From Anaerolineae bacterium (lineage in GTDB: Bacteria; Chloroflexota; Anaerolineae; Fen-1058): a DNA stretch of 64,000 nt. Positions 16,488 through 61,399 of the stretch are shown here, piece by piece. The stretch covers positions 52-64,051 of the forward strand of contig JAXLWI010000003.1 of the NCBI GenBank assembly GCA_046328575.1, read 5' to 3'. The position numbers and the translations under genes were made by a program. The notes beneath the pieces are model-generated. The model was not told the origin of the DNA, did no database searches, and saw only the letters and a program-made list of their open reading frames with translations. Each line of letters opens with the position of its first letter. Position 1 is the stretch's first letter.

Positions 16488-16513
16488 AGTCAAACCGTAG
16501 TCAGTATTGCCCA

Positions 16514-21430: not shown

Positions 21431-21448
21431 ACAAGCTGGAGGCTTCAC

Positions 21449-22963: not shown

Positions 22964-22974
22964 GGAGAACTAAC

Positions 22975-42070: not shown

Positions 42071-45000
42071 ATGCGTATTTATCGAATAGGTCTGGTCCTG
42101 GTCATTGCTCTGGTCGCGATTGGTTGGCTGTTGCCTGCGACATCTGCCCGAAGTGAAGTCGGAACTGAAAACGCCACGACTTTGCCGCTGCCGCCGGAAT
42201 TGCTCCGCAAACTGCATCCTTCTTTGACGAAGCAACTACTATCGTCCTCAGTAAGTGACGCGGCCGATCTGCGTGTGCAGATTGTGATGCGCGATCAGGC
42301 GGATGTGCGCTCGTTGGCGGCGCTCAATCGCGTCGCGTTGGTTGCCGATTTACGGACGCGAGCCGAGCGATCACAGGCGGGCGTGCTGTCCGTGCTCGCT
42401 CAGGCGCAGCTGGCCAATCGGGCTGGCGATGTGCGCGCGTTGTGGATCAACAACTCGATCGCCGCGCGGCTCGATCGAGCAACCCTGTTGACCATCGCCG
42501 CCCGCGATGACGTCGCGTTGATCAAACTCGACGAGTATCGCCAATGGGTGAATCCCACCGAGTTTGCCGATCAACCGCTTGATATTCAATCGCCAACTTC
42601 AGTGGAATGGGGTGTCGCACGCATTCAGGCCGATAAGGTCTGGGCGGCGTTGAATATCACCGGCACGGGTGTCGTCGTCGCCAACATGGACACCGGCGTG
42701 GATTGGCAACATCCGGCTTTGCAAGCCGCGTATCGCGGCAATCTGGGCAAGGGCTTGGTGTCGCATGTCGGCAACTGGTTTGATGCGACGGACTTTCCCA
42801 CGCAATATCCTTACGATGCCTTTGGCCACGGTACGCATACGATGGGCACGCTGGTCGGCAGCGGCGGCATCGGCGTGGCGCCGGGTGCCAAGTGGATCGC
42901 GGTGCGCGTGCTGAACAATCAAGGCTACGGCTTGTACAGTTGGATTCACACGGGTTTCCAATGGATTCTGGCACCTGGCGGCGATCCGTCGCGCGCGCCG
43001 GATGTGTTCAATAACTCGTGGGGATCGTCGATTGGCGGGGACGCCGAATTCCGATCGGATGTGCAGCTGCTCAACGCCGCCGGGATTTTTGCGGTGTTTA
43101 GTAATGGTAATGATGGCCCGTCAGTGGGGACTGTCGGATCGCCCGCTTCGTATCCAGAAGCATTCAGCGTTGGCGCGACCGATCAAGCTGAGTTCATCAC
43201 GAGTTTTTCCAGTCGTGGGCCATCGCCATTTGGTGTCATCAAACCCGATCTTTCTGCGCCGGGTCTCAAAGTCCGATCGAGTTTTGCGGGTGGCGGTTAC
43301 GTCATTGCCAGTGGCACATCAATGGCTGCGCCGCATGTGGCGGGTGTGGCCGCGCTGATGCATTCGGCGGTGCCGGGTCTGTCGATTCAAGCGACACGTT
43401 ACGCGTTGACCAGCACGGCGATGCGTCTTACCAGCCTGACTTATCCCAACAACGATTACGGCTGGGGGCGCGTCGATGCGCTGCGAGCCGTGTTGAGTGT
43501 GGCCCATCCTGGTTCGATCAGTGGGACGATCACACGCGCCGATAACGGCCTACCGATCAGCGACGTCACCGTTCACGCCGAGTCCGGCACTGGACTGCTA
43601 GCCGAAACAACCACTGATACGGCGGGACACTATCGCGTCTACAGCGCGGCTGGCTATTACACGCTGACGCTCGCGGCGTTTGGATACGAATCGCAAGTGC
43701 GCCCCAATGTTTTCGTTCTTACCGACACGGTTACGCCGCGCGATTATGCCTTGACGCCGTTGCCGACCGGTACATTATTTGGCCGCGTGACCGATATCAC
43801 CGGCACGCGGTTACTCAGCGGCACACTCATCGTGCGGCAGTCGCCGGTAAAGGTCGATATTTCGGGCACATATACCCTCGTCTTGCCAATTGGCACGCAC
43901 GTGATTGAGATGCGTTCACCGGGACATCGCGTGATGAAGACGACGATCACGATCGAGGCGGGCAAGTTACTACAGCTGGATTTTGCACTGCCCGACGCGC
44001 CCAGCATTTTAGTGATCGATAGCGGCGCATGGTATGCCGAAAGCCAAATTGGTTACTATCAACAGGCGCTGGATGATCTCGGTTATCTCCACACCGATTG
44101 GACTATCCGCGACCCGTCGATTGATCTCCCGACGACGCCCACGCTGCGCGCCTATGACACCGTGATTTGGTCGTCGCCGTTCGATTCGCCGGGAGTGGTG
44201 GGCGCGTCCGAAGTGCTGAGTGATTACCTGTCGAATGGCGGCCACTTGTTAATCAGCGGCCAGGACGTGGCGTACTTCGATGCGTACTGGGGCAGCGGGA
44301 CTTATTTGACCGATCAGATTTTGGCGCGATTTGTCGCCGACGACGGACCAACGCGGGTGTTGACCGGTCAGCATGGCTATGCAGGGCGCGTCGTTAACTT
44401 GACGGGCGGTGACGGTGCCGACAATCAGCTGTATCCCGATGTCATTACATCCACCGATCCGTTTTTGGCCGATACGGCTTTTGAATATGCCGCCGGTCAA
44501 TCGGGCGGTCAGACCAGCGGTTTATGTCGGCGCTATCGAACAGCGTATCTGGCCTATGGGTTTGAATCGATCAGTGATGCCGCTTCCCGCCGCGCGGTGA
44601 TGTCGGACAGCTTGCGGTGGTTGGCGCATCCGCCGATTACGCAATACTATGCGCTCGATCCGCAAACTGAGCCGTTGATCGGCGTCGTCGGGATGCGCGT
44701 GACTCGCACCCTGCAACTCCACAATCTCGACGAAGTTGCGCCGTCAACGACGTTCGCGCTCAGCATTGATCCGGCCTGGTCGGCGACGATCACGCCGACA
44801 CAAGTTACGCTAGCTAGCTGTCAAAGTAAGGTAATAACCGTTACGGTCGATGTGCCAATCGGAACGGCTTTTGGTACGTTGCAGACGCTGAACATCGAAG
44901 CGACTCCGCTGTCGGTGCCGTCCGCCGCAGTGTCTACCACGCTCGTTGCTAAGGCCCCGGGCAGCGTGCTGCTTGTCGACGATGATCGCTGGTATGCCGT

Positions 45001-46282
45001 CGACGCGCCTTATCGCGAGGCTTTGGCCGCGCACAACATCTCCTATGATTTGTGGCGCGTGCCGGTCAATTGGGCGGGGCCGGAAGCGGCCGCCCCAGAC
45101 GCCGATCGGCTAAGTTGGTATCCAGCCGTGATTTGGTTTACGGGCTACGATTGGTATGACACGCTGTCGGCTGGCAATGAAGCTGCGCTGCGCTCCTACT
45201 GGCAGAATGGCGGTCGCTTTGCGCTCTCGTCGCAGGATTATCTGGGCCAACGCGGCTACAATCTGTTCGGACGTGATGTGTTGGGCGTAGGTGCGTTTTC
45301 CGGCGATGTGCAAGATCCAGCGATGGGCGGCGTCGCACCGCGCTTCGGCGATGTATATTGGCAGCCGTTTGTGCCACCGTATCCCAACTACAGCGATGCG
45401 CTTGTGCCGCTGCCGGGCGCGCAGGTCGCCATGGTCGGTGCACACGGCTGGCCGACCGCCTTGGCGAACGCATCCACTTCGAACAAGGGCAAATCCGTAT
45501 TCATGGCGTTTGGCTTTGAGGGGCTGACGGCAACGGCGCGCCTCGAACTGATGAATGCCACGTTGGGTTATTTATCGTGGCTCGGCTCGTCGAGTGTGAG
45601 TTTCGATCGGGATCAAGCGCAGAGCGGCGACGTTATTACAGCCACGATCGCTGCGGTGAATGACGGCCCGCGTCCGATCGATCTAGCTGCCTTGACGGTT
45701 ACTCTCCCCGCCAACGTCAGTGATCCAGATGGCGCCTTGACCTGGCAGGGTTCGCTGTTGCCCGGCCAGCGCGTGACGCAGACCCTGGCGATGACGGTGA
45801 CCAACGGTGACCGGGTCGAGTTGCCCGTGCACTTTGAGGATATCGATCACCAGTTGCATTTCACGCTGACGGCGCGTTTGCCGCTCACTGCGCCGCAACT
45901 CGACTTGAACGTACAACCGGCCCCAGCGTCGGTGTTGGCTCGTGAAGTCATGACGTGGACGGTAACGGCCCACAATCGTGGCCCGCTTGATGAGGCAACG
46001 ACGATTACGAGCGTTGTGCCGTTCAATCAAAGCATCATCTCAACTTCTGTGCAGGCCAGTTCGGGTGCGCTCGGTCTTTACACCGACACGCTTGATTGGA
46101 ACGGCATCATCTCGGCCGGGCAGACCATCACGCTGACGTATCAGATGACGGCGCCGCGCACTTTGTACGCGCAGGACTATTATGCCAGCGCTATCGCAGT
46201 GATTGGCGATGAGGTCTGGCAGGCCCACGCCTGGCTCAATGTGCAGCCGCGCCGCGCCTACTTGCCCATTGTCCGAAAATAG
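42071..46282 (+). CDS. Large secreted subtilisin-like serine protease (S8) with long C-terminal beta-rich domains
   Basis: Signal peptide. Catalytic triad motifs VANMDTGVDWQHP (Asp), HGTHTMGTLVG (His), GTSMAAPHVAGVAALM (Ser). 1403 aa. TATAAT at 42059-42064 only 6 nt before the ATG (leaderless-like). Confidence 0.8.
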   Translation: MRIYRIGLVLVIALVAIGWLLPATSARSEVGTENATTLPLPPELLRKLHPSLTKQLLSSSVSDAADLRVQIVMRDQADVRSLAALNRVALVADLRTRAERSQAGVLSVLAQAQLANRAGDVRALWINNSIAARLDRATLLTIAARDDVALIKLDEYRQWVNPTEFADQPLDIQSPTSVEWGVARIQADKVWAALNITGTGVVVANMDTGVDWQHPALQAAYRGNLGKGLVSHVGNWFDATDFPTQYPYDAFGHGTHTMGTLVGSGGIGVAPGAKWIAVRVLNNQGYGLYSWIHTGFQWILAPGGDPSRAPDVFNNSWGSSIGGDAEFRSDVQLLNAAGIFAVFSNGNDGPSVGTVGSPASYPEAFSVGATDQAEFITSFSSRGPSPFGVIKPDLSAPGLKVRSSFAGGGYVIASGTSMAAPHVAGVAALMHSAVPGLSIQATRYALTSTAMRLTSLTYPNNDYGWGRVDALRAVLSVAHPGSISGTITRADNGLPISDVTVHAESGTGLLAETTTDTAGHYRVYSAAGYYTLTLAAFGYESQVRPNVFVLTDTVTPRDYALTPLPTGTLFGRVTDITGTRLLSGTLIVRQSPVKVDISGTYTLVLPIGTHVIEMRSPGHRVMKTTITIEAGKLLQLDFALPDAPSILVIDSGAWYAESQIGYYQQALDDLGYLHTDWTIRDPSIDLPTTPTLRAYDTVIWSSPFDSPGVVGASEVLSDYLSNGGHLLISGQDVAYFDAYWGSGTYLTDQILARFVADDGPTRVLTGQHGYAGRVVNLTGGDGADNQLYPDVITSTDPFLADTAFEYAAGQSGGQTSGLCRRYRTAYLAYGFESISDAASRRAVMSDSLRWLAHPPITQYYALDPQTEPLIGVVGMRVTRTLQLHNLDEVAPSTTFALSIDPAWSATITPTQVTLASCQSKVITVTVDVPIGTAFGTLQTLNIEATPLSVPSAAVSTTLVAKAPGSVLLVDDDRWYAVDAPYREALAAHNISYDLWRVPVNWAGPEAAAPDADRLSWYPAVIWFTGYDWYDTLSAGNEAALRSYWQNGGRFALSSQDYLGQRGYNLFGRDVLGVGAFSGDVQDPAMGGVAPRFGDVYWQPFVPPYPNYSDALVPLPGAQVAMVGAHGWPTALANASTSNKGKSVFMAFGFEGLTATARLELMNATLGYLSWLGSSSVSFDRDQAQSGDVITATIAAVNDGPRPIDLAALTVTLPANVSDPDGALTWQGSLLPGQRVTQTLAMTVTNGDRVELPVHFEDIDHQLHFTLTARLPLTAPQLDLNVQPAPASVLAREVMTWTVTAHNRGPLDEATTITSVVPFNQSIISTSVQASSGALGLYTDTLDWNGIISAGQTITLTYQMTAPRTLYAQDYYASAIAVIGDEVWQAHAWLNVQPRRAYLPIVRK

Positions 46283-46298: not shown

Positions 46299-47217
46299 AT
46301 GAACGATTTTTTACAGCATCTCCAAGCGGGTAAGCCGTTGATTCTGGATGGCGCGACGGGCACCGAACTCGATCGGCGCGGCGTAGATACCTCGTTGCCG
46401 CTCTGGTCGGCGCGGGCGCTCATCACCGCCCCCGAAATCGTGAAGCAAATTCATGTGGATTACATTCAGGCCGGAGCGGACATCGTCACCACTAACACCT
46501 TTCGCACGCATCGCCGCACGCTGACCCGCGCCGGAATTGGCGCACGTGCGCACGAACTGACGCAACTCGCCGTGCGGTTGGCGCGGGAGGCCGCGGCACA
46601 GGCGGGGCGTACCGTCTTTGTGGCAGGATCGATGTCGCCGCTGGAGGATTGTTATGCGCCAGACTTAGTGCCGCCTGACGCTGAACTGCGCGCCGAACAT
46701 CGCGAAATTGCGACGGATTTGGCCGATGCAGGCTGCGATGTGCTGTTGGTGGAAACGATGAACTCGATCCGCGAGGCGGTGCTGGCGGTTGAAGCGGCCA
46801 AAGCCACCGGGCTACCGGTGCTGGCCAGTTTCGTCGTTGGCCCCAACGGCCAGCCGCCCGATCGTGTGGTGGTGAACGCTTCAGCGGCGAATGCGCCGTT
46901 GAGATTACTCAGCGGCGAATCGATTACAGCGGCCGTGCAGGCTGTTAAAGCGCTGAAGCCGGCTGCGATCATGGTGAACTGTGTGCCACTGGCTTTCATC
47001 GACGGCGCGTTGGAGGAACTCGCGCGGCTTTGCCTTGATCGGCTTGTATGCCAACGTCGGGCACGCCGACGACGCGATCGGGTGGACGCTCACCGACGAC
47101 GTGCGGCCCGAAGCGTACGCGCAGCACGCGCGGCACTGGCTCGAACACGGCGCGACCATCGTCGGTGGGTGTTGCGGCACTTCACCCGCACATTGCCGCT
47201 TTGAAGAAACTCATTGA
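46299..47217 (+). pseudogene. Homocysteine S-methyltransferase family gene with a +/-1 frameshift near 47020
   Basis: N-terminal 240 aa in one frame (LILDGATGTELDRRG...). Conserved C-terminus (GLYANVGHADDAIGW...IVGGCCGTSPAHI) in another frame (ORF 46981-47217). Arg-rich out-of-frame tail in ORF 46203-47204. Confidence 0.6.
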
Positions 47218-47235
47218 TAAGGAAATAGCGACCAG

Positions 47236-47890
47236 ATGATAAAAGCACTGATTACAGATTATGGCGGCGTACTGATGCGCACTCGCACCGATCGCGCGCG
47301 CGGCGCGAGTTGGAACAACGTCTGGGCTTGCCGCCGCGCACGATCGAGGATCGCGTCTTTTCGAGCGATCTGTTCACACGCGCGCAGAGCGGTGAGATCA
47401 GCGAACCGGAGTTTTGGTCGTCGTTGGGGCGCGACCTAAATCTAGCGCAATTTGATCTCAGCCCTCAAACATTCCGGCTGGAATTCTTCGCGGACGATTT
47501 TCTGGACGGAGAATTGATTCAGTTCTTTCGCAACGCACGCGGCACGTTCAAGACCGGCCTGATCAGCAATGCGTGATGGACTGCGCGATGCTGTTGACGG
47601 ACCTGTGGCACATCGACGACGCGTTTGATGTCATCACGATCTCGGCCGAAGAAAAGGTAATGAAACCGGATGCCCGCATCTTTCACACGGCGCTCGAACG
47701 GCTGGGCGTGCAGGCTGTTGAAGCGATCTTCCTCGACGACTTCAAAGTCAACGTCGATGCCGCGAATGCGCTGGGCTTGATCGGTGTCCACTTCCGATCG
47801 AGCGAGCAGGCCCAGCGTGATATTCGCGCACTATTGGATGGAAAAAGGGTTAACGTCGGATTCGCGTTCGAGGTGAAATCCGTAGGGCTT
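47236..47890 (+). pseudogene. HAD-IA family hydrolase gene split over three reading frames (>=2 frameshifts)
   Basis: Motif I MIKALITDYGGVL (47236 frame). Middle segment ...FWSSLGRDLNL...KTGLISNA (47310 frame). Motifs III/IV VITISAEEKVMKPDARIF...EAIFLDDFKVNVDAANALGL (47573 frame). Confidence 0.55.
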
Positions 47891-47894
47891 ACTC

Positions 47895-48438
47895 ATGGCG
47901 ACGATTGGGATCGTAGCAGATACGCATGCCGCAGCGATTGGCGCGGCTGCCGCAGAACTTGGCGGCGGCGCTGCGTGGCGTCGATCTAATTCTGCACGCC
48001 GGCGACCTCAATTCGCGCCGGGTGCTGATTTATTGGCGGAAATCGCGCCGGTGCAGGCCGTAGCGGGCAACGCCGATCTTTTCGGACACGGCTTGCCGTT
48101 GACGCGGCTGATCGAGATTGAAGGCAAGCGCATCGGGTTGGTGCATGGCCACGGCGGCTGGGCCAAGTATCTGGCGGGCAAAGTGTGCGATCGGCTAGGC
48201 TATCGCGAAGAGTACTATGTGAACATTGTGGTGGAGTCGTTTGGCCACGTGGACGCGATCGTGTTTGGGCACACGCACCGTCCGCATTGCGAAGTCCGGA
48301 TCGAGTGTATTGTTGTTCAATCCCGGACCAATCGCGCCCACGTATTACACCACGTCCGGTCCGCAAATCGGCTTGCTGCACGTGTCGGCGCAGGGCTTAA
48401 CGACTGAAATCGTCAGCTGTAACGGCTTCGTAACCTGA
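47895..48438 (+). pseudogene. YfcE/MJ0936-type metallophosphoesterase gene with >=2 frameshifts
   Basis: MATIGIVADTHA, GVDLILHAGDL (other frame), AVAGNADLFG, LVHGHG, VFGHTHRP, then LLFNPGPIAP in a third frame (ORF 48226-48438). Confidence 0.55.
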
Positions 48439-48483
48439 TTGTTCTGAAAGGCAAATTGGCTGTTGACTTGATTTGTTGTACAA

Positions 48484-49300
48484 TGCTGCGTGTTGCATTG
48501 ATTATGATTGATCGTGCGCTAATTTCCGTCGAACATTTCCGGCGACCTGGCTGAGCATCTAGCAGTCGCTCGACAAAACGGTCTGGGCTTGGAACTCCAG
48601 GAATTTTCTGATCCCAACGTGCTGGACGGCGATTGGCGCGGTCTCCTCGATCGGTATCGGCGTGCTTTGAAGGATTTCCCTGGGCTGTTGTCGATGCACG
48701 GCGCGTACATCGATCTGGTCAGCGGCAGCCCTGATTTGCGGCTAGTGGCACTGACCCGCGAACGCTATTTACACAACCTGGAAATCGGCCGCGAGTTGGG
48801 TGTGAAGTACATCGACTTTCACGCCAACTATTTGCCGCTCGTCGATCATCCCAGTTATCTGCCCGGCTGGGTGGAACTGGCAGGTGGCCTCTGGTCTCTG
48901 CTGGCCGAACAGGCGGCGCAGTCAGGCATTGTGTTGTTGCTGGAAAATATGTGGGAGCCGGGATCCCGCTATCATCGTGCGCATCCTCGAACGTGTCCAA
49001 TCGCCGTATTTGCGGGCTTGCCTCGACGTGGGACATGCGGTGTTGTATTCACATCTGCTGATCAGCGCGTGCGGATCCGTGAACTGGGCGGGGACCTAGT
49101 CTATACGCACCTACACAATAATCACGGCACCACCGACGAGCACTTGGCTTTTGGCGACGGCGTGATCGATTTTCCGGAGTTGCTCACTTTGATGCGGGCG
49201 TTGCCACAACCACCCTTGTTCAGCCAAACTACCCAACCTCACACTGATCAAAGACAGTCTGCCCTATTTGAAACTGACACTCTAAATCTGCCTATAAGAA
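48484..49300 (+). pseudogene. Sugar phosphate isomerase/epimerase (xylose-isomerase-like TIM barrel) gene with >=3 frameshifts
   Basis: Segments GDLAEHLAVARQNGLGLELQEF, YIDFHANY..., LLLENMWEP, IVRILERVQSPYLRACLDVGHA, LVYTHLHNNHGTTDEHLAFGDGVIDF occur in alternating frames. The ORF-track version reads through the terminator at 49300. Confidence 0.5.
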
Positions 49301-49329
49301 AACGCGACCCACTTTCGGGTCGCGTTTTT
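49300..49329. terminator. Strong bidirectional intrinsic terminator: aaacgcgaccc-actttc-gggtcgcgttt + TTTTT
   Basis: 10-11 bp perfect GC-rich stem flanked by A-run and T-run, between convergent genes. Confidence 0.7.
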
Positions 49330-49344
49330 GTTGAGATTACTTTT

Positions 49345-49635
49345 TCACTGAGTTTTACGGGCTAAGCCTTTGGGCCAGTCCACCACTTTGCGTTTTGGCT
49401 CGGCTTCGACCATATGCTTCATCGCCTGGGCGATCTCTTCTGGATCATAGTTTCCCGACTGCGCTGCCAACTCGTCGAGCGCAGCACGTTCTTCGTTGTA
49501 ATCGGCCGGCCAAACTTGCACATCGAGGTCGGCCATCGCCAACAGCAGGGCGCGTTGATCGGGCGTTAACTTGCGCGCATTCTCCAACAACCACTTGGCT
49601 TTGCCGGATGCAAACAGGGATTTTTTCTGGGCCAT
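49345..49635 (-). CDS. Small hypothetical protein (96 aa), intact
   Basis: MAQKKSLFASGKAKWLLENARKLTPDQRALLLAMADLD... No family recognised. Starts right after the terminator on the opposite strand. Confidence 0.4.
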   Translation of the reverse strand: MAQKKSLFASGKAKWLLENARKLTPDQRALLLAMADLDVQVWPADYNEERAALDELAAQSGNYDPEEIAQAMKHMVEAEPKRKVVDWPKGLARKTQ

Positions 49636-49831
49636 GCCGATCGTCCTTTTGACGCTCGCGGTGTTACTTTCATTATACGCTAAGCCGGGGCTGAGTCAAA
49701 GCCTAATCCTTGCTTCAGGATTGACAATCGTACCAGGCACATGCACACAATAGGACCACGCCGATTGCCTAATCCTGCACGGGATAGCCTGCGGACTTTG
49801 CGGCGCATTCAAATCGCTAGAGGAAGGAATC

Positions 49832-51587
49832 GTGAACGCTGGTCAGTTTCGAGTTCGTGTAGCAATAATTGTTGCTTTATTATCGACGGCGGTTTTGGGT
49901 GCGGCTGGTGCCGCCGACCAATCATGCGCTGCAGGCTGCCGATGCGGATCGGGGCCGGCTTCTGTTCCCGGACCAGAAGTGATTGTGCGTGCCGTGAATA
50001 ACCCAGGTAGCCGCCTTTTCAGCGCCGCCGCCGTCTCCGGCACTTCGACTCAATCCTAATGCGCCCAGCGCAAGCTACGTTCAATGTCACGTATAACGGC
50101 TTCCGGCCAACGCTCAGGCGGCTTTCCAATACGCCGTCGATATTTGGGCCGGGCTGCTGGATTCATCGGTGACGATCAACATCACCGCCACGTGGACACC
50201 ACTTGCGACGGGTGTATTGGGTTCCGCCGGAGCGATCAGTCTCTATCGGAACTTTCCGGGCGCGCCTGCTGCTAACACGGGAAGTTCTCTGACGCACTGG
50301 CCGATCGGCGGGCGTGCGGCAATCGCGGCGGCACGTATGACATCAATGCCAACTTCAACAGTAATTTTGCCGATTGGTATTTCGGTACCGACGGTAACGT
50401 GCCCTTCACCAATGGGATTTTGTCTCGGTGGTCTTACATGAGATCGGGCACGGTCTGGGCTTTGCTGGATCTTTCACGACGGTAAGCGCGGGCATTGGCC
50501 AATGGGATCATCCCTCATTTCCCGGCACACCCACGATCTACACGCGTTTCGTCCGCGACGGTTTGGGCAATCCGATTATCTCTTATGCCAGTCCATCGGC
50601 CGCGCTTCTGGTACAGCGCCGTAAGGCGGGGCTAGTGGCCTGTTTTGACTGGCCCGTTTGGCACGGCCGGTAACAGTGGTACACAGCCCACGCTGTATTC
50701 ACCCAATCCGTGGAAGCCGGCTCCAGTTTCTCGCACTTTGATCAAGCCACGTACGCGGTTGAACTGATGAAGCCTGCGCTGCCCAACGGCACGGCGATTC
50801 ACTCGCTCGGCACACGCACGCTGGGCGCGTTGCGCGACATCGGCTGGGGTGACGAACTGGTGATTCAGGCCTTCGGCTACAACACCACTGGCGTTGTCGA
50901 ATGGATATGTTTCAGAAATAACTCGTCGGTGTCGGTGAACCTGAGCGACTATGCCATTGGCGACGAAGAGCGGCAAGGCGGCACAGAAGGCATGTTCCTG
51001 CTGCCCAACGTCAATCTGGCGGCGGGTGCATTGTTCACCATGCGCGCGCAGCGATGGCACGTGGGCGACCGCTTATATCCGGGCGATCCCAATCCGACCT
51101 ATTGCTGGAATTGCACGAGCGGCTATACAAATCTGACCAACTACAGTCTGTGGGGCGGCACGGCTGGCGATCTGGCTAACACGGGCGACGAAATCGTCTT
51201 GCTGCGCACCAACGGCGGCCAAGCCGACACGGACGGCGTTACCGATGACTTTATCATCGACGCGATGCTATGGAACCGGACAAAACGTACATCGATACCG
51301 ATGGCAGCGGGATCAGCGAAACGGCCGATCGCAACATCTTCACCAACGGCACCCGCCTGAGCACGCTGGCGTCAGGCAGTTTTCAGCGTGCGTCGACCGT
51401 AGAGACGTGCGTGCCGTCCACTGCCTTGACCGATAATCCCACGGCCGTCACAGTGAACTCATTAGAGGCGGCGCGCTCAACCACCGACCCAGATTCGGCG
51501 GCCAACTCCAGCCGATTGCTGATCGCGGCGACTGCGTTGCTGTTGGCGGGCGGCGTGGCCGTTTATCGGCGGCGACCGGCGCGTTAG
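49832..51587 (+). pseudogene. Secreted zinc metallopeptidase (HEIGHGLGF) with C-terminal TM + Arg-rich anchor, fragmented by >=4 frameshifts
   Basis: Signal peptide ORF 49832-50059. HExxH in ORF 50428-50673. Further collinear fragments 50169-50441, 50710-51360. C-terminal LLIAATALLLAGGVAVYRRRPAR in 51270-51587. Confidence 0.5.
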
Positions 51588-51679
51588 GCGTTAGTTCCAC
51601 TTCGACTTACTACATCGCCCCGCTGGCTTTGAATTTTCCAGCGGGGCGATGTGTTAATTCTCAACGGCTTTCCAGTTTC

Positions 51680-53374
51680 GCGCGTGCAAGTCGCGCTTCA
51701 GGATTTTGCCAACGGGATCAGCGCGGCAGCGCCTCGACGATCAGCAGTTTCTTCGGCATCTTGTAAGACGCCATGTCTTTGGATTTCAAGAAGTCGCGCA
51801 GTTCGTCGATGGTGATCGACTGATCCTTTTTCTGGCGCGATCGGCGCGCAGATCCGTTCGTCGTCCAACCGCTGATCGGTGATGCCGACCACGGCGACCT
51901 CGGCCACTTTGGGATGCTCGACCAGCAGCGCTTCGATCTCCTCCGGCGCGATCTTCATGCCGCCGCGAATGATCAAATCTTTAGCCGCCCCACAAAGCGA
52001 TACCGATTCAACTCGCCGCCTTCGCCCGCGATTTCGAATAGATCGCCGGTGTAGAAGTAACCGTCGACATCGAAGGACTTAGCGGTCAAGTCGGGCCGCG
52101 CGTAGTAGCCGGTAAATACCGTCGGGCCTTTGATGGATTAACTCGCCCGCGCATTCGGCTCGGTGATCGTCGCTTTCGTGATCGGGTCGACCAGCCTTGG
52201 TAGACATGCTCGCACCGCGCGATTGGTCCACGCGAAGGGCACGCCGTAACGCGGAAAGTAGCGGGCGCGCTCGGCGGCATCGGGAATCTCATCGGGCGCG
52301 CTGATCAACGCAGTGCCTTCGTTGTTGCCAAAGAAATTCAACACGTTGATGTGGTGCTGTTCCTTCCAACTGCGCGTCATCCATTCGGACAACGGCGCCG
52401 AACCAGACCCGATGTTTTTGATCGAACTCAGATCGGCGTTAGCGAGGATGGCGGGATTGAGCAGCAGCATGTTCAACAGCACTGGCGGCACAACGGTGTA
52501 GTTGACGCGCTCGCATTTCTTTGATTTGGCCTAAAAACAAGCCCAAATTCAACGGGTGATGCATCACCAACTTGCCACCTGTCAACAGCCATGGTACCAG
52601 CATTCCGCCGATGGCGCTCATGTTCACCATCGGAAAGGGGTTGAGCAGTGTGTCGCCGCGCTCGATCTGCGCGCCGTCGGTGGTGGTGGCATACGCGATG
52701 CTGATCCAGTGATTGTGGCTGCGCGGTACGCCCTTCGGTTCGGCCTCAGTGCCTGATGTCCAGCAGATGGTAAAGACCTCATTAGCGGTGATCGGGTAGG
52801 CGGCCCGTTGTATCGCCAAGCCCGGATAATCGGCGGGCGCGGCGACCAGGTCCGTCCACGCGATCACATCCACTGGCAAGTCGTCGCCGAGCGCGATGAT
52901 CGTTGAGGCTGGGCACTTCGGGTTGCAGATGCTGCACCATCTCGACGTAGCGTTGAAGCCGCCGAAGTGGTTCGTCGTAATGAAGGCTTTGGGCGCGACG
53001 TTCAACGTTTGGCGCAGTTCGTGCGTCCGATACTGCACGGGCAGTGGACTGACGATCAGGCCGAGCCGTGCGGCAGCCAGATACACGATCGGCAGTTCGA
53101 CGATGTTGGGCAATTGCACCATGATCACGTCGTCTTTGGTGAGGCCCAACTTCAGCAGGCTGCTCGCCAGTCGATCGACTTGTTCCGCGAGTTCGGCATA
53201 GGTGAAGCGCTGCGGCTGGCCAACAGTCAATTCTGCGCGATTCGGCGGATCAACTAGCGCGACAGAGTGCGGTGTAGCAGCCGCATTGCGGCGGAACAGA
53301 TCATCCAGCGTGTCTGTTCCCCAATAACCAGCGGTGGTATACGCCTGAATTTGTTCGGGGGCAACTAACAACAT
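51680..53374 (-). pseudogene. AMP-dependent synthetase/ligase (acyl-CoA synthetase) gene with >=4 frameshifts
   Basis: N-terminal segment 53374-52439 including TSGTEAEPKGV. Middle 52491-52138 (IGSGSAPLS). C-terminal IIRGGMKIAPEEIE (51976-51698). Correct C-terminal tail ...ITIDELRDFLKSKDMASYKMPKKLLIVEALPR is only in another frame, shifting at an A5/T5 homopolymer near 51830. Confidence 0.5.
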
Positions 53375-53454
53375 TGACTACTCCTCCCAGGGTAGATTGA
53401 GAAACTCAAAGGCTGAGTTTTCTGACAAACAGATTGCATGTTGCCGCGCAACGC

Positions 53455-54294
53455 TCAGGCGCCTCGCGTTGCACCGCTCCCGGAGGTCAACACGCAGCGA
53501 TTAGTTTTCAGCGCGTTGGCCCCGGCGCGGTGGCCAGGGAATGAACGCGCCTGTCGTGTCCATATAATTTTTGTAACCAGGCTTCTTGTCTTCGCTAAAG
53601 TTTTTTCCAGCAAACCTACGCCCGATACTTTTACCAGAAACAACGTCATGATGATGGGACCGAAGATCGACCACCAGCCGCCCGCACTGCCGCGATTAGG
53701 TAGTAGCCCCACCATTGCGCACTATCGCCAAAGTAATTGGGATGACGCGCATGGTCGGCGAAACCGGTGTTGAGCAACTTGCCTTTGTTCGCTGGATTCG
53801 CTCTGAAGGCGCCTTGAGTTGCGCATCGCCGCATTGTTGAAATAGAACCCGATGATCCACGCCAGCACGCCGAAGCCATCCACCAACCCGATCGGACTGG
53901 CCCCGACTGCGCGATCAATAGCGGCGCGCCGGGATCACAAACATCAGCACACCTTGCAGCAGAAAGACCTGAAAGAAACTCACCCACCAGTAGCGTTCCG
54001 GCCCGTACTGAGGCGAAACCCTGGTAGCGAAAGTCTTCCGGCTTGCCGCCAGGTTGCGTTGATGAATGTGAAGCTCCCAAACGCAAGCCCCAGATCGTGA
54101 CCAGCGCGGCGATTAGTAGTTTGCGTGGCAGATGACCATCGGGCGTGAGCAGGAAATACACCCATACTTGCAGCACGAAGCCGGGTCCCCAGTACGTATC
54201 GACGATGCTGGCATTTGATGCGGACGCTGTAAATCCACAGCAGCGTCATCATGAGCAGAATTGCGCCGAAACCGATTAAGTAATTTTGTAACAT
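53455..54294 (-). pseudogene. DUF1295 / steroid-5-alpha-reductase-like membrane protein gene, frameshifted
   Basis: N-terminal TM segment in ORF 54294-53980. RHPNYFGD...WWGYYLIA family signature in ORF 54176-53646. Fragments in different frames. Confidence 0.4.
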
Positions 54295-54742
54295 GAGTAT
54301 CTCCGAGTGAAATGACCAAAGACCAATGAAAAATGACGACCGCTGAATGCTTTAGACTAACTTTTGAAACTCTTCTGAAAAATGCATTACCCTGCTTATC
54401 GATGAGCATGAGTTTGACGCTGCCGGTGACCAAGCGTAGGCGCGTATCGGCGTTGATGATCTCGTAGCCGAACGTCAGCGCGCGGCTGCGCAGTGAGTCG
54501 ATCCACGTGTGCGGACGGTGATCCGTTCGTTGTAGTGCGCGGGCGACAGGTAACGGCACGTTCACATCGGTGACGGCCAGCGATAAGCCGCTCCGCTCCA
54601 CGGCGACGTAGTCGAGATGTTTCTGCCGCATAAATTCCGAGCGGCCTTCTTCCATCCACACCACGTAGTTACTGTGATGGACGATGCCCATCTGATCGGT
54701 CTCGGCGTAACGCACGTAAAAAGAACTTAACAACTTTGTCAT
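54113..54742 (-). CDS. Hotdog-fold acyl-CoA thioesterase (YbgC/4HBT-like); the 3' ~200 nt of this ORF is probably read-through
   Basis: YVRYAETDQMGIVHHSNYVVWMEEGRSEFMRQ active-site region typical of 4HBT thioesterases. Expected size ~135 aa, so the true stop is probably near 54330. Confidence 0.5.
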   Translation of the reverse strand: MTKLLSSFYVRYAETDQMGIVHHSNYVVWMEEGRSEFMRQKHLDYVAVERSGLSLAVTDVNVPLPVARALQRTDHRPHTWIDSLRSRALTFGYEIINADTRLRLVTGSVKLMLIDKQGNAFFRRVSKVSLKHSAVVIFHWSLVISLGDTHVTKLLNRFRRNSAHDDAAVDLQRPHQMPASSIRTGDPASCCKYGCISCSRPMVICHANY

Positions 54743-54789
54743 CAGTCATTTAGCGATACCCTTCGGCTTGAATCGTAAACAGTTTAGCG

Positions 54790-56470
54790 TACATGCCGCC
54801 CTTCGCCAGCAAGTCGGCGTGCGTGCCGGGATCCAGATCGCGCCATCTTCCAGCACGATGATGCGATCGGCCATGCGGACGGTGCTAAACCGATGGCTGA
54901 TCAAGATCGCAATCTTGTTATCGGTCAGTTCGCGAAAGCGCTGAAAACGGCATATTCGTTCAACGCGTCGAGCGCGGCCGTTGGTTCATCCAGCACCAGC
55001 ACTTCAGCATCGCGCATGAAGGCGCGGGCTAGCGCCACCTTCTGCCACTCGCCGCCAGATAGATCGTTGCCGCGCTCGAACCACTTGCCCAGCATCGTGT
55101 CATAGCCTTGCGGCAGCGAGGTGATCGTCGGGTGAGCACCGAGCGCTGCGCCGAATCGACGATACGCGGCTCGTTCTCCAACTGATCGATCTGGCCGAAG
55201 CCGATGTTCTCTCTCTCGCCGGCAGGAAGTACTTCACAAAGTCTTGGAATATCACCCCGATCCGCTTTTGCAGTTCCTTTTGATCGACTTCGCGCAGATC
55301 AACGCCGTCAATCAACACCTGGCCTTCGGTTGGATCGTACAGGCGCGTGAGCAGTTTAACGAGCGTGGTCTTGCCCGCGCCGTTGGCGCCCACCAACGCG
55401 ATCTTTTTCGCCGGGTTTGATCGTGAGATTAACATCACGCAGAGCGTAGTCGCTGCGATCGGCGTAGCGGAACGAAAACGTTCTTGAATTCCGATGCCGC
55501 GCTCGATCGGGTGTGGGAGCGCGATCGGAGTGACTGAGATCGGCATCAGCGGTTTCCTAAATCGAGAAACGCAGGCGAGATTGCTCATGAACAGCGCGTT
55601 TTCGTACAGATCGCTCAAGCCGAAGAACAAACTTTGAAAGACGTTCTGGCTCTGGCGAAAGATCGACAGATACAGCGCGTCATATCGCCGAGCGTGATGC
55701 CGCCTTCGATGGTGCGGTAGACGATCCAGCCGTAGGCGAAGTAGTAACTGAGCGGCCAGCAAGCCCCAGCCAAATGAGGCAAACTGCGCTTGCGCCAGCG
55801 CTTGATCTTCGCGCATGAACTTCCAGAACAGATCGGCATAGCGTCCCAACAGCGGCTCGCCCAAACCGAAGAGCTTGACTTCCTTCACGCTGGTATCGAC
55901 GGTAAGCAAGTATTCCAGATAATTCATGCGCCGCGCTTCAGGCGCGCGCCACGACAGCAAGCGGAAGTTCAACTGCGCGTATTGCGACCGCGCGATGAAG
56001 GCCGGAATCGTCGCGCCGAAAGAAAGGGATGAGGGCGAGCAGCGCGTTGAAGCGGAAAAGCAGGGCCGCAAATGAGAGCAGCGTGATCGTGTTCTGAACG
56101 AAATAGAAGCCGTTGTTCATGATCTGCAGCGCGCGCCAATCGGCTTCGCGACGAGCGTTTTGCAGCTTGTCGTAGAACTCGGCGTTCTCAAAGTGCGAGA
56201 GATCGAGCCATTGTGCGCTTGCGGATCAGACGCGTGTTGAGCGTGAAGTTGAGGCGTGTGCAAGATGTGCTCGGTCAACGAACGTGCCTGACCGACACCT
56301 GCTGACGCGAGGATCAACACGAACTCGATCGCCAGATACGGCAACGTTGCGGTCAGGCCGGTTTGCGCGTCCACCTTCGCCCCGATCGAACTCACGACCG
56401 AATCGATGATCAACTCGTTTACCCATAGGCCTGCCCGGCCGGGATCAACGCACCAACGATCGTCAACGCC
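54790..56470 (-). pseudogene. ABC transporter (fused permease + ATPase, MsbA-like exporter) gene with multiple frameshifts
   Basis: Walker A LVGANGAGKTTLVKLLTRLYDPTEGQVLIDGVDL in ORF 56071-55100. TM-domain fragments in ORFs 56413-56117 and 56120-55938. C-terminal ATPase motifs in yet other frames. Confidence 0.5.
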
Positions 56471-56702
56471 GCCATCATCAACGTCGCGGGTTTATGCGCG
56501 TCCCACACCAACCGAAAGGCCGCCGGAATGTTCGCGGCGGCCTGTTTGAGATCTTGCCGATTCGGCAACTTGGATTCACTCGCCAAGGCCACACCTTTGA
56601 TCGCAGATTCAAATTACCTCCGCGCCCGATGACCCACGACTTGTCCATAAGGTCTGCGCCTGAACCTGTGCGTGAGGCAACGCCTATGGAGGCTTTGCTA
56701 TA

Positions 56703-57605
56703 ATGGGCTATCGAATTCCGATAGTGAAAAGGAAACAAACAAGCGCCAATCCCTTGCGCAGGTGGTGGCTGGTGCTCATCGTGGCGCTCGTCGCGTGCTC
56801 GATTAATGGGACCTCGACCTCGATCGGAGCGGGCACGCGTCCCCCGAGCACGTCGCCGTTACCGACGCCAACGATCGGTGTTAGCCCACTGAGCAGCCCG
56901 CAACCGATCCCAGTTTTCAGTTACCAGATCGTCAATACATATCCTCACGATCGAGCAGCGTTTACCGAAGGTCTGGTATTGGACGGGCAGACGCTGTATG
57001 AAGGCACGGGCCTTAACGGCCAATCGGTCTTACGCCGTGTCGATTTGACGACCGGCCAAGTCCTGCAAAATGTCGCCCTATCTTCGAAGTACTTTGGCGA
57101 AGGCATCGTCGTCTGGGGTGATCAAATTCTACAACTCACCTGGAAGTCGCACATTGGATTTGTCTACGACAAGGCGACTTTTCAACAGCTCAAGACGTTC
57201 AATTACGACACTGAAGGCTGGGGCTTTACGCACGACAGTCAACACTTGATCATGAGCGATGGCACTGCCACACTGCACTTCCTCGATCCAGAGACGCTGA
57301 CCGAAGTCGCGCAGCTGACAGTCATCGCGCAAGGTCAACCGGTGGTCAACATCAACGAATTGGAATATGTGCAAGGCGAAATCTGGGCGAACATTTGGCA
57401 GACCAATCGCATTGCCCGCATCGCGCCGGATACCGGCCAGGTCGTCGGCTGGATCGATCTCACTGGTCTGCTCACACCCGCCGAGCAGGCCGCGGGCGTC
57501 GACGTATTGAACGGCATCGCTTACGATGCCGAGCACGATCGCGTATTTGTCACAGGCAAGTTCTGGCCCAAACTGTTCGAAATCAAAGTCATACCCAGTC
57601 CATAA
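56703..57605 (+). CDS. Glutaminyl-peptide cyclotransferase (beta-propeller, plant/bacterial type)
   Basis: Signal peptide then YPHDRAAFTEGL...LYEGTGLNGQS...WKSHIGFVYD, characteristic of the Glu_cyclase_2 family. A TATAAT overlaps ATG 56703, so GTG 56724 (MKRKQTSANPLRRWWLVLIVALVAC) is a plausible alternative start. Confidence 0.8.
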   Translation: MGYRIPIVKRKQTSANPLRRWWLVLIVALVACSINGTSTSIGAGTRPPSTSPLPTPTIGVSPLSSPQPIPVFSYQIVNTYPHDRAAFTEGLVLDGQTLYEGTGLNGQSVLRRVDLTTGQVLQNVALSSKYFGEGIVVWGDQILQLTWKSHIGFVYDKATFQQLKTFNYDTEGWGFTHDSQHLIMSDGTATLHFLDPETLTEVAQLTVIAQGQPVVNINELEYVQGEIWANIWQTNRIARIAPDTGQVVGWIDLTGLLTPAEQAAGVDVLNGIAYDAEHDRVFVTGKFWPKLFEIKVIPSP

Positions 57606-57639
57606 CACAACCGGTCGTTATGATAGAATCTGATCGATC

Positions 57640-60600
57640 ATGGCCACTTCGCTGCCAACGCCGATCACTCGTTTCGTGGGGCGTACCCGCGAACTGCACG
57701 AACTGCGCGACCTGTTACAGACCGAGCGGCTGATCACGCTCACCGGTCCCGGCGGCAGCGGCAAGACTCGCCTCGCCGTGCAACTTGCTTCGGTTGTTTC
57801 TATCACAGTTCACTGGATCGATCTCAGCGCGCTGACCGAGCCCGATCAAGTAGCCGAGTGGGTGCGACGCGCGCTGGGGCTAGGTGAACAACCCGATCGA
57901 TCGGCCAGCGACCACGTGATCGATTTTCTGCGCGATCGATCGCTCTGGCTCATCCTCGATAACTGCGAACAAATCTCCACCGCACTAGCCCGCTTCGTTC
58001 ACACCCTGCTCGATCGGTGTCCTAACCTCAACGTGCTGGTGACCAGTCAACAGCCGTTGGGCCTGCCGTCTGAAAAAGTCTATGCGGTACTGCCGCTGTC
58101 CGTGATGGTGGGCGAGGGTCAATCGGACGCCGTTCAACTCTTCATCGAGCGTGCCCGCGAAGTTCTGCCCACGTTCGAAATTACCGCCGCTAACCTTGCG
58201 TTGATCGAGATGATCTGTCGCCGCCTCGACGGACTGCCGCTGGCCATCGAGTTGGCGGCTGCGCGCGTGAAGGTGCTCTCGCTCGCGCAGATCGCCGATC
58301 GGTTGGATGACGCCCTGAAGTTGTTGACGCGGGGCACTGCCGCGCAAGCCGCGCGGCATCAAACTTTGCGCGCCGTCATGGAGTGGAGTTATCGACTGCT
58401 GTCAGCGGCTGAGCAAACTTTGTTGCGGCGTTTAGCCGTTTTTGCAGGCTCGTTCACGCTGGACATGATCGAAGCCGTCGGCGCGGATAATGCAGTTGGC
58501 GTGCTTGATCTACTCACAGATCTGATCGACAAATCGTTAGTGGTGGTGGATGCGCCCATTACCGATCCTGCGCGCTACCATTTACTAGAAACGATTCGGC
58601 AGTATGTGCGGGAACAACTCGATGCGGCGGGCGAAAGTACCGAGTTGTTCACGCGCTTGTGGCAGTGGGCGGTGACGCTGGCTGAACAGTCTGAACCGGA
58701 ATTGATCGGGCCGCAGCAACGCAAGTGGCTGCAACGTTTGACGCTGGACTATGCCAACTTGCGCGCGGCGCTGTCCTTTACGCAGCGCCAGAACTTGATC
58801 GAGCGCGGACTGCGGTTGGGCGCGGCGCTGGGCCGTTATTGGTGGGCGCGCGGCGAATTTACCGAAGGGCTGTACTGGTTGGAGATGTTTTTGGCTCGAT
58901 CTGATAACGTGCCTGCCACGGCTGCTAGCCGCGCCAAAGCCTGTCAATATGCGGCTGGTTATTTATATCGACAAGGTAAATTGGAGCGCGCCGCGCTGTT
59001 AGCCAAACAGAGTTTAGCCTTGCGGCGTCCGCTGGGCAGCGAACGTGACATGGCCGAATCGCTGAACTTGCTGGGCATGATCGCGTCAGATGCCAGTGAA
59101 TTTGCCACAGCCGAAGCCTACTATCTGGAAGCGCTGCAGTTGCGACAAGCGGCGGGCGAGGTGCGCGGTACGGCGGTGGTGCTGGGCAATCTGGGTTACG
59201 TGCTGCGCTTGCAAGGCCAGTACGATCGGGCGCATGACTATTATCAACAAGCGCTGATCCACTATCGGCAGTGCGGCGATGTGCGCGGCATCGCCACTAT
59301 CTTGAACAACCTCGGCAACATCCACACGACTCGCGGCGATTTGAACGGCGCACGTCCGTTGTATGAAGAGAGTCTGGCGCTATCACAGCAACTCGGCGAT
59401 CAATGGGGGGCGGCGCGAGCCACATCGTCCATCGCCGCTTTAACGTTAAACGTGGGCGAGTACGATCGAGCCCAGACGTTGTTGCAAGAGACGCTGGCCC
59501 TGGGTCGAGCCATTCACGATGAATTGATCGTTGCTTCAACGCTGACCAATTTGGGACTGTTGGCTTATCTGCAAAACGATTATGGCCGCGCAGCCACTCA
59601 CTACGAAGAGGCGCGGCTGCGCTGGCAAACCCTAAAACATGATTGGGGCGAAGGGCAGGTGCTGGTCGGGCTGGGGCGGCTGGCCTGCGATCAAGGTGAC
59701 CTCGTGCGCGCTGCACACTGGTTGCGTGAGGGGTTACAACTTTATCAGCGCCTTCATCACCTCGAAGGTTTAGCCGATAGTTTTGAAGGACTCGCCGCGC
59801 TCGCGGCGCGACAATCCAACACTCCGCTCGCGGTGCAACGGTTAGCGCTGGCAGCGCGCTTGCGCACGCAGGCGCACGTCCCGGCGCTGCCGCCGCAGCA
59901 AGCGCAGATCGATCGATTGACGACGGCCGCGCGCGCCACGTTGGGTGACGCCGCGTTCGATCGGGCGTGGGCGGTTGGAGCCACGCTCGAATTAGACATG
60001 GCCGTAGCCGAGGCGCTGAGCGATCAGCCGCCGTCAATCCAGATCAGCCCGGCTGAACCCGCGCTGCGCATCTTTGCTTTAGGCCCAACGCGCGTGTTGA
60101 TTGGTGAGCGCGCGCTCACGTCAACGGATTGGACGTACACCAAAGCGAAGGAACTGCTCTTCTATTTCCTCGCCAATCCGCCTGCGACCAAAGCGCAAAT
60201 TGGCTTGGATGTGTGGCCGGAAGCCTCGGCCGATCACCTGCGTAACATCTTTCATCGCGCATTACATCATCTGCGCAAGGCGCTCGGCCAACTCGATTGG
60301 ATCGTCTTCGCCGACGACGCCTATTCATTCAATCGGACGTTGAATTACTGGTGCGATCTGCACGAGTTTGAAGTGCGGCTGGCGTCCAAGTCAACCGACC
60401 GCGCGGCGGAGATCAAACGGCTGGAAGCGGCCGTGCAATTGTGGCGCGGCGATTTCGCCGAAGATTTGGATGCCGCTGAATGGGTGATCTTCAAGCGCGA
60501 AGAACTCCGCAATCGCTACCTGCAAGCGTTGCTCGATCTCGGCGCGCTGCATTTTGGCACGGCACAGTACGATCGGGCGGCGGCAGTCTATCGGCGGTTG

Positions 60601-60792
60601 CTGGCGCTCGATACGTATTTTGAATTGGCGCATCGTGAGTTGATGCGCTGTCTCGTGCGGCAGGGCGAAGTCGGTCACGCGCTGCAGCACTATCAACATC
60701 TGCGCGAGATGCTGCGGCAGGAATTGCAGGCTGAGCCTTCGCCGGAGACGGTGCGCCTGAATGAGCGGATCAAACGCGGCGAGTCAGTCTGA
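57640..60792 (+). CDS. Large NB-ARC-like ATPase / TPR-repeat transcriptional regulator with C-terminal SARP-type winged helix + BTAD domain
   Basis: Walker A GPGGSGKTRLA. Central TPR repeats. C-terminal RIFALGPTRVLIGE...ELLFYFLANP (OmpR-like wHTH) and a BTAD helical region. Confidence 0.75.
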   Translation: MATSLPTPITRFVGRTRELHELRDLLQTERLITLTGPGGSGKTRLAVQLASVVSITVHWIDLSALTEPDQVAEWVRRALGLGEQPDRSASDHVIDFLRDRSLWLILDNCEQISTALARFVHTLLDRCPNLNVLVTSQQPLGLPSEKVYAVLPLSVMVGEGQSDAVQLFIERAREVLPTFEITAANLALIEMICRRLDGLPLAIELAAARVKVLSLAQIADRLDDALKLLTRGTAAQAARHQTLRAVMEWSYRLLSAAEQTLLRRLAVFAGSFTLDMIEAVGADNAVGVLDLLTDLIDKSLVVVDAPITDPARYHLLETIRQYVREQLDAAGESTELFTRLWQWAVTLAEQSEPELIGPQQRKWLQRLTLDYANLRAALSFTQRQNLIERGLRLGAALGRYWWARGEFTEGLYWLEMFLARSDNVPATAASRAKACQYAAGYLYRQGKLERAALLAKQSLALRRPLGSERDMAESLNLLGMIASDASEFATAEAYYLEALQLRQAAGEVRGTAVVLGNLGYVLRLQGQYDRAHDYYQQALIHYRQCGDVRGIATILNNLGNIHTTRGDLNGARPLYEESLALSQQLGDQWGAARATSSIAALTLNVGEYDRAQTLLQETLALGRAIHDELIVASTLTNLGLLAYLQNDYGRAATHYEEARLRWQTLKHDWGEGQVLVGLGRLACDQGDLVRAAHWLREGLQLYQRLHHLEGLADSFEGLAALAARQSNTPLAVQRLALAARLRTQAHVPALPPQQAQIDRLTTAARATLGDAAFDRAWAVGATLELDMAVAEALSDQPPSIQISPAEPALRIFALGPTRVLIGERALTSTDWTYTKAKELLFYFLANPPATKAQIGLDVWPEASADHLRNIFHRALHHLRKALGQLDWIVFADDAYSFNRTLNYWCDLHEFEVRLASKSTDRAAEIKRLEAAVQLWRGDFAEDLDAAEWVIFKREELRNRYLQALLDLGALHFGTAQYDRAAAVYRRLLALDTYFELAHRELMRCLVRQGEVGHALQHYQHLREMLRQELQAEPSPETVRLNERIKRGESV

Positions 60793-60830
60793 AGTGAAAT
60801 AGTCCAGCAGCACACACTCAAGGGGGAGAC

Positions 60831-61223
60831 ATGTCCGATCAAATCATCACCGTTCGACCTGAAGTTACGATCATGACCCGACAGCATCTGCCCAACTTCG
60901 TGGGTATTTCGGCGGCCACAGCGGGCGCGACCAGCATCTCGATGAACATGGTGATCATTCCGCCGGGCGGTTCGGCTGAACCGCACTTGCATCGCAACTA
61001 CGAAACCGCCATCTATCTGCTGCAAGGCCGTGTCGAAACGCGCTACGGGCCGGGGCTGAGCCAATCGGTGGTTAACGAGGCCGGGGATTTCATTTTCATT
61101 CCGGCGAATGTGCCGCATCAACCCATCAACCTCAGTGACACCGAGCCCGCGCGGGCGATCATCGCGCGCAACGATGCCAACGAGCAGGAACACGTGGAAG
61201 CCTATCATCCGCATGACGCTTGA
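60831..61223 (+). CDS. Cupin domain protein
   Basis: 130 aa with cupin motifs (PPGGSAEPHLHRNYETAIYLLQGR...GDFIFIPANVPHQPIN). Confidence 0.6.
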   Translation: MSDQIITVRPEVTIMTRQHLPNFVGISAATAGATSISMNMVIIPPGGSAEPHLHRNYETAIYLLQGRVETRYGPGLSQSVVNEAGDFIFIPANVPHQPINLSDTEPARAIIARNDANEQEHVEAYHPHDA

Positions 61224-61399
61224 GCGCACTGGGAGGCTGGCTCTGTCCAACATCCAACATCCAGCCTCCAACCTCCAATTTCCAACTTCCAATTTCTAAC
61301 CTGCCCTGTTAGCACTTCTAGAAGCACCGGGGTGCTATGCTGTACGACAATTCGCCGCAGGCGGACTTGTTGCCGCAGCGGTGATCAGGGGAGGATACT

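Follow-up and report, generated by a model that had tools for sequence, protein, structure and literature searches.

The genome assembly of an Anaerolineae bacterium (Chloroflexota, GCA_046328575.1) contains, in contig JAXLWI010000003.1, a stretch of 64,000 nucleotides (nt) (positions 52 to 64,051 of the forward strand, hereafter the window) in which ten genes, from a homocysteine S-methyltransferase to an ABC exporter, lie in a block of about 9.7 kilobases (kb) that is dense in small insertions and deletions (indels). Nine of the ten genes are broken, and at least 70 small indels were found in total (Table 1). On the map of open reading frames (ORFs) of the window, the longest ORF between 47.0 and 56.5 kb encodes 323 amino acids (aa); the flanks contain ORFs of 1403 aa (42,071-46,282) and 1050 aa (57,640-60,792) and, farther to the left, of 1630 and 1663 aa. 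The GC content is 54-60% throughout the block, the same as in its surroundings, and neither of the block edges, both of which were examined, displays repeats or mobile-element ends.

Pfam matches of the stop-free fragments show that the parts of one gene run on collinearly in shifted frames. The homocysteine S-methyltransferase profile (PF02574) is covered at positions 1-232 and then at 225-276, and the profiles of AMP-binding (1-257, then 255-352), AMP-binding_C (1-41, then 41-71), DUF1295 (6-186, then 189-222) and ABC_tran (9-80, then 104-137) are split in the same manner. Other fragments match a HAD hydrolase, Metallophos_2, a xylose-isomerase-like TIM barrel, a lamin-tail domain and a 4HBT thioesterase. 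The frame switches are also visible with a 3-periodic Markov model trained on the flanks, but its noise is too high for counting.

These results bear out an earlier note on this DNA, which had described nearly every gene at 47-56.5 kb as disrupted and the flanking ORFs, of up to 1663 aa, as uninterrupted. The possibility that the fragments are unrelated short ORFs fails, as the Pfam profiles continue across the shifted frames. The note had counted at least 20 indels, which recognized the damage and understated the number, and had placed the block at 47020-56470; the left limit agrees with our analysis, but the right one has to be moved to the last certain event, a CC insertion at 56,620, or possibly to ~56,753. 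Its description of the 96-aa ORF as intact holds, since this ORF is collinear with its orthologue and has no internal shift, whereas the thioesterase, which it had considered perhaps intact, contains four indels.

Table 1 Position and state of the indel-rich block, its genes and adjoining features. Coordinates are those of the window; non-3n denotes a length that is not a multiple of three; identities are those of frame-corrected or frameshift-aware alignments; dN/dS is the ratio of nonsynonymous to synonymous substitution rates, given against L166 unless L163 is named.
Feature	Position	Strand	Indels or state	Orthologue, identity	dN/dS
Indel-noisy block	~47,022 to 56,620, possibly ~56,753; outer limits 47022..56755	.	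first event ~47,022-47,035		
Homocysteine S-methyltransferase	46299..47236	+	2 events: first 723 nt clean, then frameshifts ~47,022 and ~47,185	318 aa (L169), 68%	
HAD-family hydrolase	47236..47845	+	3 events: shifts ~47,294 and ~47,593, plus a 3-nt insertion	203 aa (L169), 68%	
YfcE-like metallophosphoesterase	47895..48420	+	3 frameshifts: ~47,928, ~48,026, ~48,300	176 aa (L169), 72%	
Xylose-isomerase-like TIM-barrel protein	48507..49302	+	5 frameshifts: ~48,540, 48,961, 49,068, 49,228, 49,278	264 aa (L169), 76%	
96-aa ORF	49345..49635	-	sole undamaged gene of the block	99 aa (L169), 69%	
Secreted lamin-tail-domain (LTD) protein	49832..51587	+	14 non-3n indels, 1-2 nt each	584 aa (P0121), 93.5%	0.127 (vs L163)
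Hairpin, 23-nt arms (inverted repeat I2)	51604..51660	.	not damage; between the convergent LTD and acyl-CoA synthetase genes		
AMP-binding acyl-CoA synthetase	51654..53374	-	8 non-3n indels plus four 3-nt indels	571 aa, ~91-92% (90.9% vs L163)	0.097; 0.115 (vs L163)
DUF1295 / steroid-reductase-like membrane protein	53501..54294	-	10 non-3n indels	263 aa, 90%	0.109
4HBT thioesterase	54352..54749	-	4 non-3n indels: 54,382, 54,507, 54,555, 54,722	133 aa	0.076
ABC exporter (subfamily B, fused permease-ATPase)	54750..56586	-	17 non-3n indels	609 aa, 95.6%	0.042 (dN 0.022, 0 stops)
Intergenic DNA of the block	49,744, 49,774, 49,820, 54,304, 56,620		5 non-3n indels		
Glutamine cyclotransferase-like gene	56703..57605	+	first gene in the clean right flank		

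Related lineages with intact orthologues

Close orthologues were found by protein searches with the frame-reconstructed sequences, and their contigs were then compared with the window. The comparison set comprises three short-read contigs from two related lineages, which we call L163, L166 (representing the contigs L166-L168) and L169. L163 (GCA_964394735.1, 4.4 kb) carries the LTD gene, the convergent AMP-binding gene and the start of the DUF1295 gene, all uninterrupted. The L166-L168 contigs, which were assembled with MEGAHIT and are held in ENA, carry intact ABC, thioesterase, DUF1295 and AMP-binding genes; their counterparts of the right flank are a cupin gene, a gene for a 1051-aa TPR regulator and a 290-aa glutaminyl-cyclase-like gene, from which the order continues with the ABC gene onward. 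L169 (GCA_040960975.1) carries the methyltransferase, HAD, phosphoesterase and TIM-barrel genes and the orthologue of the 96-aa ORF, likewise intact. The identity between L163 and L166 is 98.7%, and that of either to the window is about 88%.

The gene order of L169 at 492-7570 is ABC-thioesterase, methyltransferase, and then the 99-aa ORF, TIM barrel, phosphoesterase, HAD and methyltransferase. The DUF1295, acyl-CoA synthetase and LTD genes are absent from this order, and these three are therefore a variable insert between conserved neighbors. Among species-representative genomes and JGI (Joint Genome Institute) metagenomes, the relatives of the acyl-CoA synthetase are only 64-75% identical at the amino acid level, which is too far for base-level work. 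A four-gene chimeric protein query for the left part of the block yielded no close relatives, its results being swamped by methyltransferase homologues.

The LTD family (~585 aa) displays, in its sequence features, a signal peptide, a HEIGHGLGF zinc-protease-like motif, a lamin-tail domain and a C-terminal transmembrane anchor. The protein search returned about 18 full-length relatives at 55-79% identity, almost all of them without names, and the only one with a lineage label belongs to a metagenome-assembled genome of Thermoflexales (Chloroflexota). Another contig of a public assembly, L165 (ENA ERZ25039554 contig_35487), looks full of indel errors as well: at 1-15077, genes related to those of L164 are split into small pieces, with DUF58 present as 137 + 133 aa, and its LTD protein measures 319 aa instead of ~585.

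The alignments clarified several details of the individual genes. The 210-aa ORF at 54,116-54,745 is a shifted read-through of the thioesterase and not a native protein; it includes 16 scrambled residues in a row and ends in a spurious C-terminal extension. An in-frame TGA of the HAD gene, at ~47,574, is made by the 3-nt insertion. The eight events of the AMP-binding gene include one, at 51,833, that was found only with L163, and a compensated pair of indels is probably hidden near 52,140. The hairpin downstream of the LTD gene is probably a bidirectional terminator.

At the right edge, the ATG start of the orthologue of the cyclase-like gene corresponds to AAC in the window (56740-56756), and one extra base follows ~12 nt later. 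With this possible +1 at ~56,753, perhaps the final error of the block, codons 1-5 are out of frame, but an in-frame ATG farther upstream, at 56,703, keeps the ORF open. The window also lacks 84 nt of L166 at 56660, in the intergenic region between the ABC and glutaminyl-cyclase genes; this difference could be natural or could be a junction scar.

Spectrum and placement of the indels

The comparison was made at the level of single bases for positions 49,515-56,650 (7.1 kb), and via protein-to-DNA alignment for the left part of the block (47,022-49,300). In the former, L163 was aligned to positions 49,515-53,968 of the window, with 89-90% nucleotide identity, and L166 to 51,826-63,105. In the latter, where the closest relative is 68% identical, we used a frameshift-aware protein-to-DNA method of our own, for which flank controls and the right-hand genes served as checks; it placed ~13 events in the methyltransferase, HAD, phosphoesterase and TIM-barrel genes.

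The base-level part contains 63 gaps, 57 of which are not multiples of three. Thirty gaps are 1 nt long, 24 are 2 nt, six are 3 nt, two are 4 nt and one is 5 nt, and none exceeds 5 nt. Insertions and deletions are balanced (34 and 29, respectively), and a single deletion of the 29 measures 4 nt or more. Where the L163 and L166 alignments overlap, all of the events detected with L166 (16/16) were also found with L163, and these indels are therefore derived in the window.

This spectrum bears directly on the possibility that the block is genuine, i.e. that real mutations are eroding nine adjacent genes on which selection no longer acts, perhaps owing to redundancy or dispensability of the segment. 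The ORFs are indeed broken in the sequence as given, and about half of the insertions are tandem duplications, which are also found among the insertions of natural pseudogenes (PMC6054270). In real bacterial pseudogenes, however, the size distribution of indels is a long-tailed power law, and deletions of 2 nt and of 3 nt are each ~0.34 times as frequent as those of 1 nt (PMC6054270). By our own arithmetic from the counts of that work, roughly 44% of the deletions in real pseudogenes are 4 nt or longer, whereas the block displays neither a long tail nor a deletion bias. The pseudogene tracts of reductive genomes (Ca. Burkholderia leaf-nodule symbionts, Mycobacterium leprae) offer a parallel, in that they show several frameshifts per gene in adjacent genes and in that some insertions of the block form direct repeats. 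Unlike the block, such pseudogenes are scattered genome-wide, carry many substitutions and stops, and have power-law sizes with long deletions (PMC6054270).

The placement of the indels does not follow the genes. The density of non-3n events is 8.0 per kb overall, 8.0 per kb in coding sequence (52 in 6,506 nt) and 7.9 per kb in non-coding sequence (5 in 630 nt). Their spacing is exponential (Kolmogorov-Smirnov p=0.54) and their variance-to-mean ratio is 0.8-0.9, which fits a uniform Poisson process. At this density of 8 events per kb, the chance that the 291 nt of the 96-aa ORF would escape is ~0.1.

The onset of the damage is mid-gene. At the block rate, the methyltransferase gene would keep its initial 723 nt free of events with a probability of P=0.003, and no event was found in 46,299-47,021. 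On the right, no non-3n event was found in the coding sequence of 56,760-61,223; with the exception of the possible +1 at ~56,753, zero such events in ~4-4.4 kb of coding sequence correspond to P~1e-14 at the block rate. In a blastn comparison with L166, the block is 86.9% identical with 52 gap openings in 4.9 kb, and the right flank is 82.8% identical with 13 gap openings in 6.5 kb; the flank thus diverges more from L166 than the block does, yet has fewer gaps. A global MAFFT alignment of the flank contains only seven gaps (84, 6, 13, 3, 7, 51 and 1 nt), and those within the three flank genes for which gaps were tabulated measure 6 nt and 3 nt only. Both the onset in the middle of a gene and the equal densities in coding and non-coding DNA argue against genuine decay.

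Selection on the frame-corrected genes

To compare substitutions, the frame was restored by reading the window through the codons of the orthologues. The block genes corrected in this manner are 90-96% identical to their orthologues and display dN/dS values of 0.04-0.13. For genes of the flank compared with the L166 contig, dN/dS is 0.095, 0.033, 0.131 and 0.123, with dN of 0.015-0.101, and the block is thus indistinguishable from the flank in dN/dS. The substitutions on the window branch of the AMP-binding gene are distributed over codon positions 1, 2 and 3 as 29/22/111. In the LTD gene, a comparison with seven outgroups assigned 13-19 lineage-specific amino acid changes to the window and 5-9 to L163, which is a small excess beside 14 indels.

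The ratio of indels to substitutions is the second property at odds with genuine decay. In bacteria, base substitutions outnumber newly arising indels roughly tenfold (PMC6054270). The 17 indels of the ABC gene would therefore be expected to come with ~170 substitutions, raising dN by about 0.09, but the total dN observed is a fraction of this, dN/dS is low and stops are absent (Table 1). The 7.1 kb base-level part contains one clear nonsense substitution, at 50,622 (TAA vs CAA), which, together with the stop-creating 3-nt insertion at ~47,574, is what decay would produce. A further candidate, the stop at 52,140, was rejected as a nonsense substitution because it sits in a short out-of-frame stretch between close compensating indels. 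Moreover, related lineages have conserved this segment, with its synteny and with undamaged genes. As the indel-to-substitution ratio and the size spectrum both mismatch, neutral decay with a normal mutation spectrum is rejected, and we consider a genuine pseudogene block quite unlikely.

Cause of the damage and its consequences for annotation

Considering that the indels (i) are specific to the window, (ii) are Poisson-spread, (iii) are blind to coding status and gene boundaries, and (iv) are not accompanied by an excess of substitutions, a technical artefact is favored: the block is very probably a ~9.6-9.7 kb patch of consensus or assembly error. We infer that the cause lies in sequencing or assembly rather than in mutation. 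The consensus would have been built on poor evidence over ~9.6-9.7 kb, possibly where a gap was filled from one or few long reads, where coverage was low, or where a chunk escaped polishing. This would have resulted in random insertion and deletion errors of 1-5 nt at about 0.8% per base, with the underlying genes being ordinary, functional and conserved. The platform or pipeline step cannot be named because the link to homopolymers is weak, 2-nt events are many, and insertions are about as frequent as deletions.

False pseudogenes created by long-read indel errors are a known phenomenon (PMC12007338). Similar to such errors in long-read and hybrid assemblies (PMC12007338), the damage to the block is dominated by indels, splits genes over frames that read perfectly once the frame is restored, lacks a substitution excess, and disregards gene boundaries and coding status. 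Unlike in typical cases, it is confined to one ~9.7 kb patch of a clean contig, its association with homopolymers is weak, and its 2-nt events are unusually frequent.

Several points weigh against an error patch. Its cause is deduced from the sequence alone, and substitution errors of up to about 1% are not measurable amid 11-13% real divergence. Most single-base events (24/30) are located in runs of two bases or fewer: the 30 events occupy runs of 1, 2, 3, 4 and 5 bases 12, 12, 2, 3 and 1 times, respectively, compared to 55/30/10/3/0.6% for random positions. The frequency of 2-nt events is close to that of 1-nt events (ratio 0.8). Insertions are often tandem duplications (6/15 of the two-nt insertions vs about 13% expected), and a 4-nt insertion at 56,018 duplicates GAAA, such that GAAA follows GAAA. 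To our knowledge, this spectrum matches no platform profile.

Runs of 4-5 bases are mildly over-represented at the single-base events (4/30 vs about 3.5% expected). As run lengths are only mildly shifted from random, homopolymer-centered errors, which are the profile of nanopore, 454 and Ion Torrent sequencing, were rejected; this excludes those platform profiles, but not an artefact as such. After multiple-test correction, neither GATC nor CCWGG nor any 4-mer is enriched at the event sites. The base composition of the events is asymmetric on the + strand, with A contributing 1/39 of the deleted and 15/52 of the inserted bases; like the near equality of 1-nt and 2-nt events, this asymmetry fits no profile known to us.

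The same features could point to corruption after assembly, either by in-silico or file-handling alteration or by chimeric joining with another, low-quality contig of this locus. Such corruption would account for the similar frequencies of 1-nt and 2-nt events, the balance of insertions and deletions, the uniform, Poisson-like placement, the lack of context dependence and the abrupt edges. Purely random synthetic edits, however, are contradicted by the enrichment of tandem duplications, including that of GAAA, and by the scarcity of A among the deleted bases. We find this origin improbable, although only the source data could distinguish it from a read-level artefact.

A spectrum that is indel-only, context-free, sharply bounded and a poor fit to standard platform profiles might also bring to mind an exotic but real process, namely localized indel-only hypermutation, such as error-prone synthesis over a ~10 kb repair tract, or cryptogenes that regain their frame through insertion/deletion editing of the RNA or through massive programmed frameshifting. 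As in programmed ribosomal frameshifting and insertional RNA editing, the coding information of the block runs on in another frame. However, the block has ~70 sites of both signs and of 1-5 nt, and no enriched motif was found at them (downstream RNA structures were not looked for). Intergenic DNA is hit and the onset is mid-gene, which shows that the process is not gene-directed, and the orthologues have plain ORFs that need no recoding. Programmed ribosomal frameshifting was accordingly rejected, given the absence of an enriched motif and the unshifted orthologues, with stimulatory RNA structures not having been searched. We know of no repair process that yields about 8 indels per kb without substitutions. 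Such an exotic process is thus extremely unlikely, and it is highly improbable that the indels are real and fixed, be it through an indel-only, substitution-free burst in a ~10 kb tract, for example during the repair of a break, or with the genes still being expressed by way of a novel bacterial mechanism that restores the frame. If reads were nevertheless to confirm them, an indel-only mutational burst at such a density would be unprecedented.

The error-patch explanation agrees with one of two that the earlier note had offered, a locally error-rich part of the assembly, in light of the indel-only damage, the equal coding and non-coding densities, the mid-gene onset and the unrelaxed dN/dS. 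The other, a decaying accessory segment, is contradicted by the synteny and intactness of the segment in relatives, by dN/dS values of 0.04-0.13 and by the lack of a long size tail such as that of real pseudogenes (PMC6054270). The long-read homopolymer errors that it had mentioned as a source fare less well, as most events lie outside homopolymers. Of the analyses it had proposed, the comparison with orthologous loci found that the relatives carry the genes intact, and frameshift-aware alignment with a homopolymer test placed the indels but revealed only mild enrichment.

The block is almost certainly a quality defect and not biology, and its value is that of a warning for annotation. Gene callers would list about 30 ORF fragments, or nine spurious pseudogenes, for the block, and it would be wrong to infer gene loss, relaxed selection or an accessory island from this contig. 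Our comparison also provides a read-free recipe for distinguishing an error patch from decay, in which intact relatives are found and the frame is restored, and four properties are then checked: dN/dS, the indel-to-substitution ratio, the indel size spectrum, and the indel density in coding vs non-coding DNA.

Elsewhere in the window, positions 7995-24743 of the + strand carry a duplicated module that resembles a signaling or conflict system. It consists, in this order, of an 8xGAF histidine kinase (1630 aa), a 139-aa ORF, a REC+TCAD9 protein (536 aa), a REC+CHAT protein (521 aa), a second 8xGAF kinase (1663 aa), another REC+CHAT protein (504 aa), a Pepco protein (141 aa) and an nSTAND1+Trans_reg_C protein (471 aa). 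The GC content of the window falls to 47-50% at 12-15 kb and at 23-27 kb.

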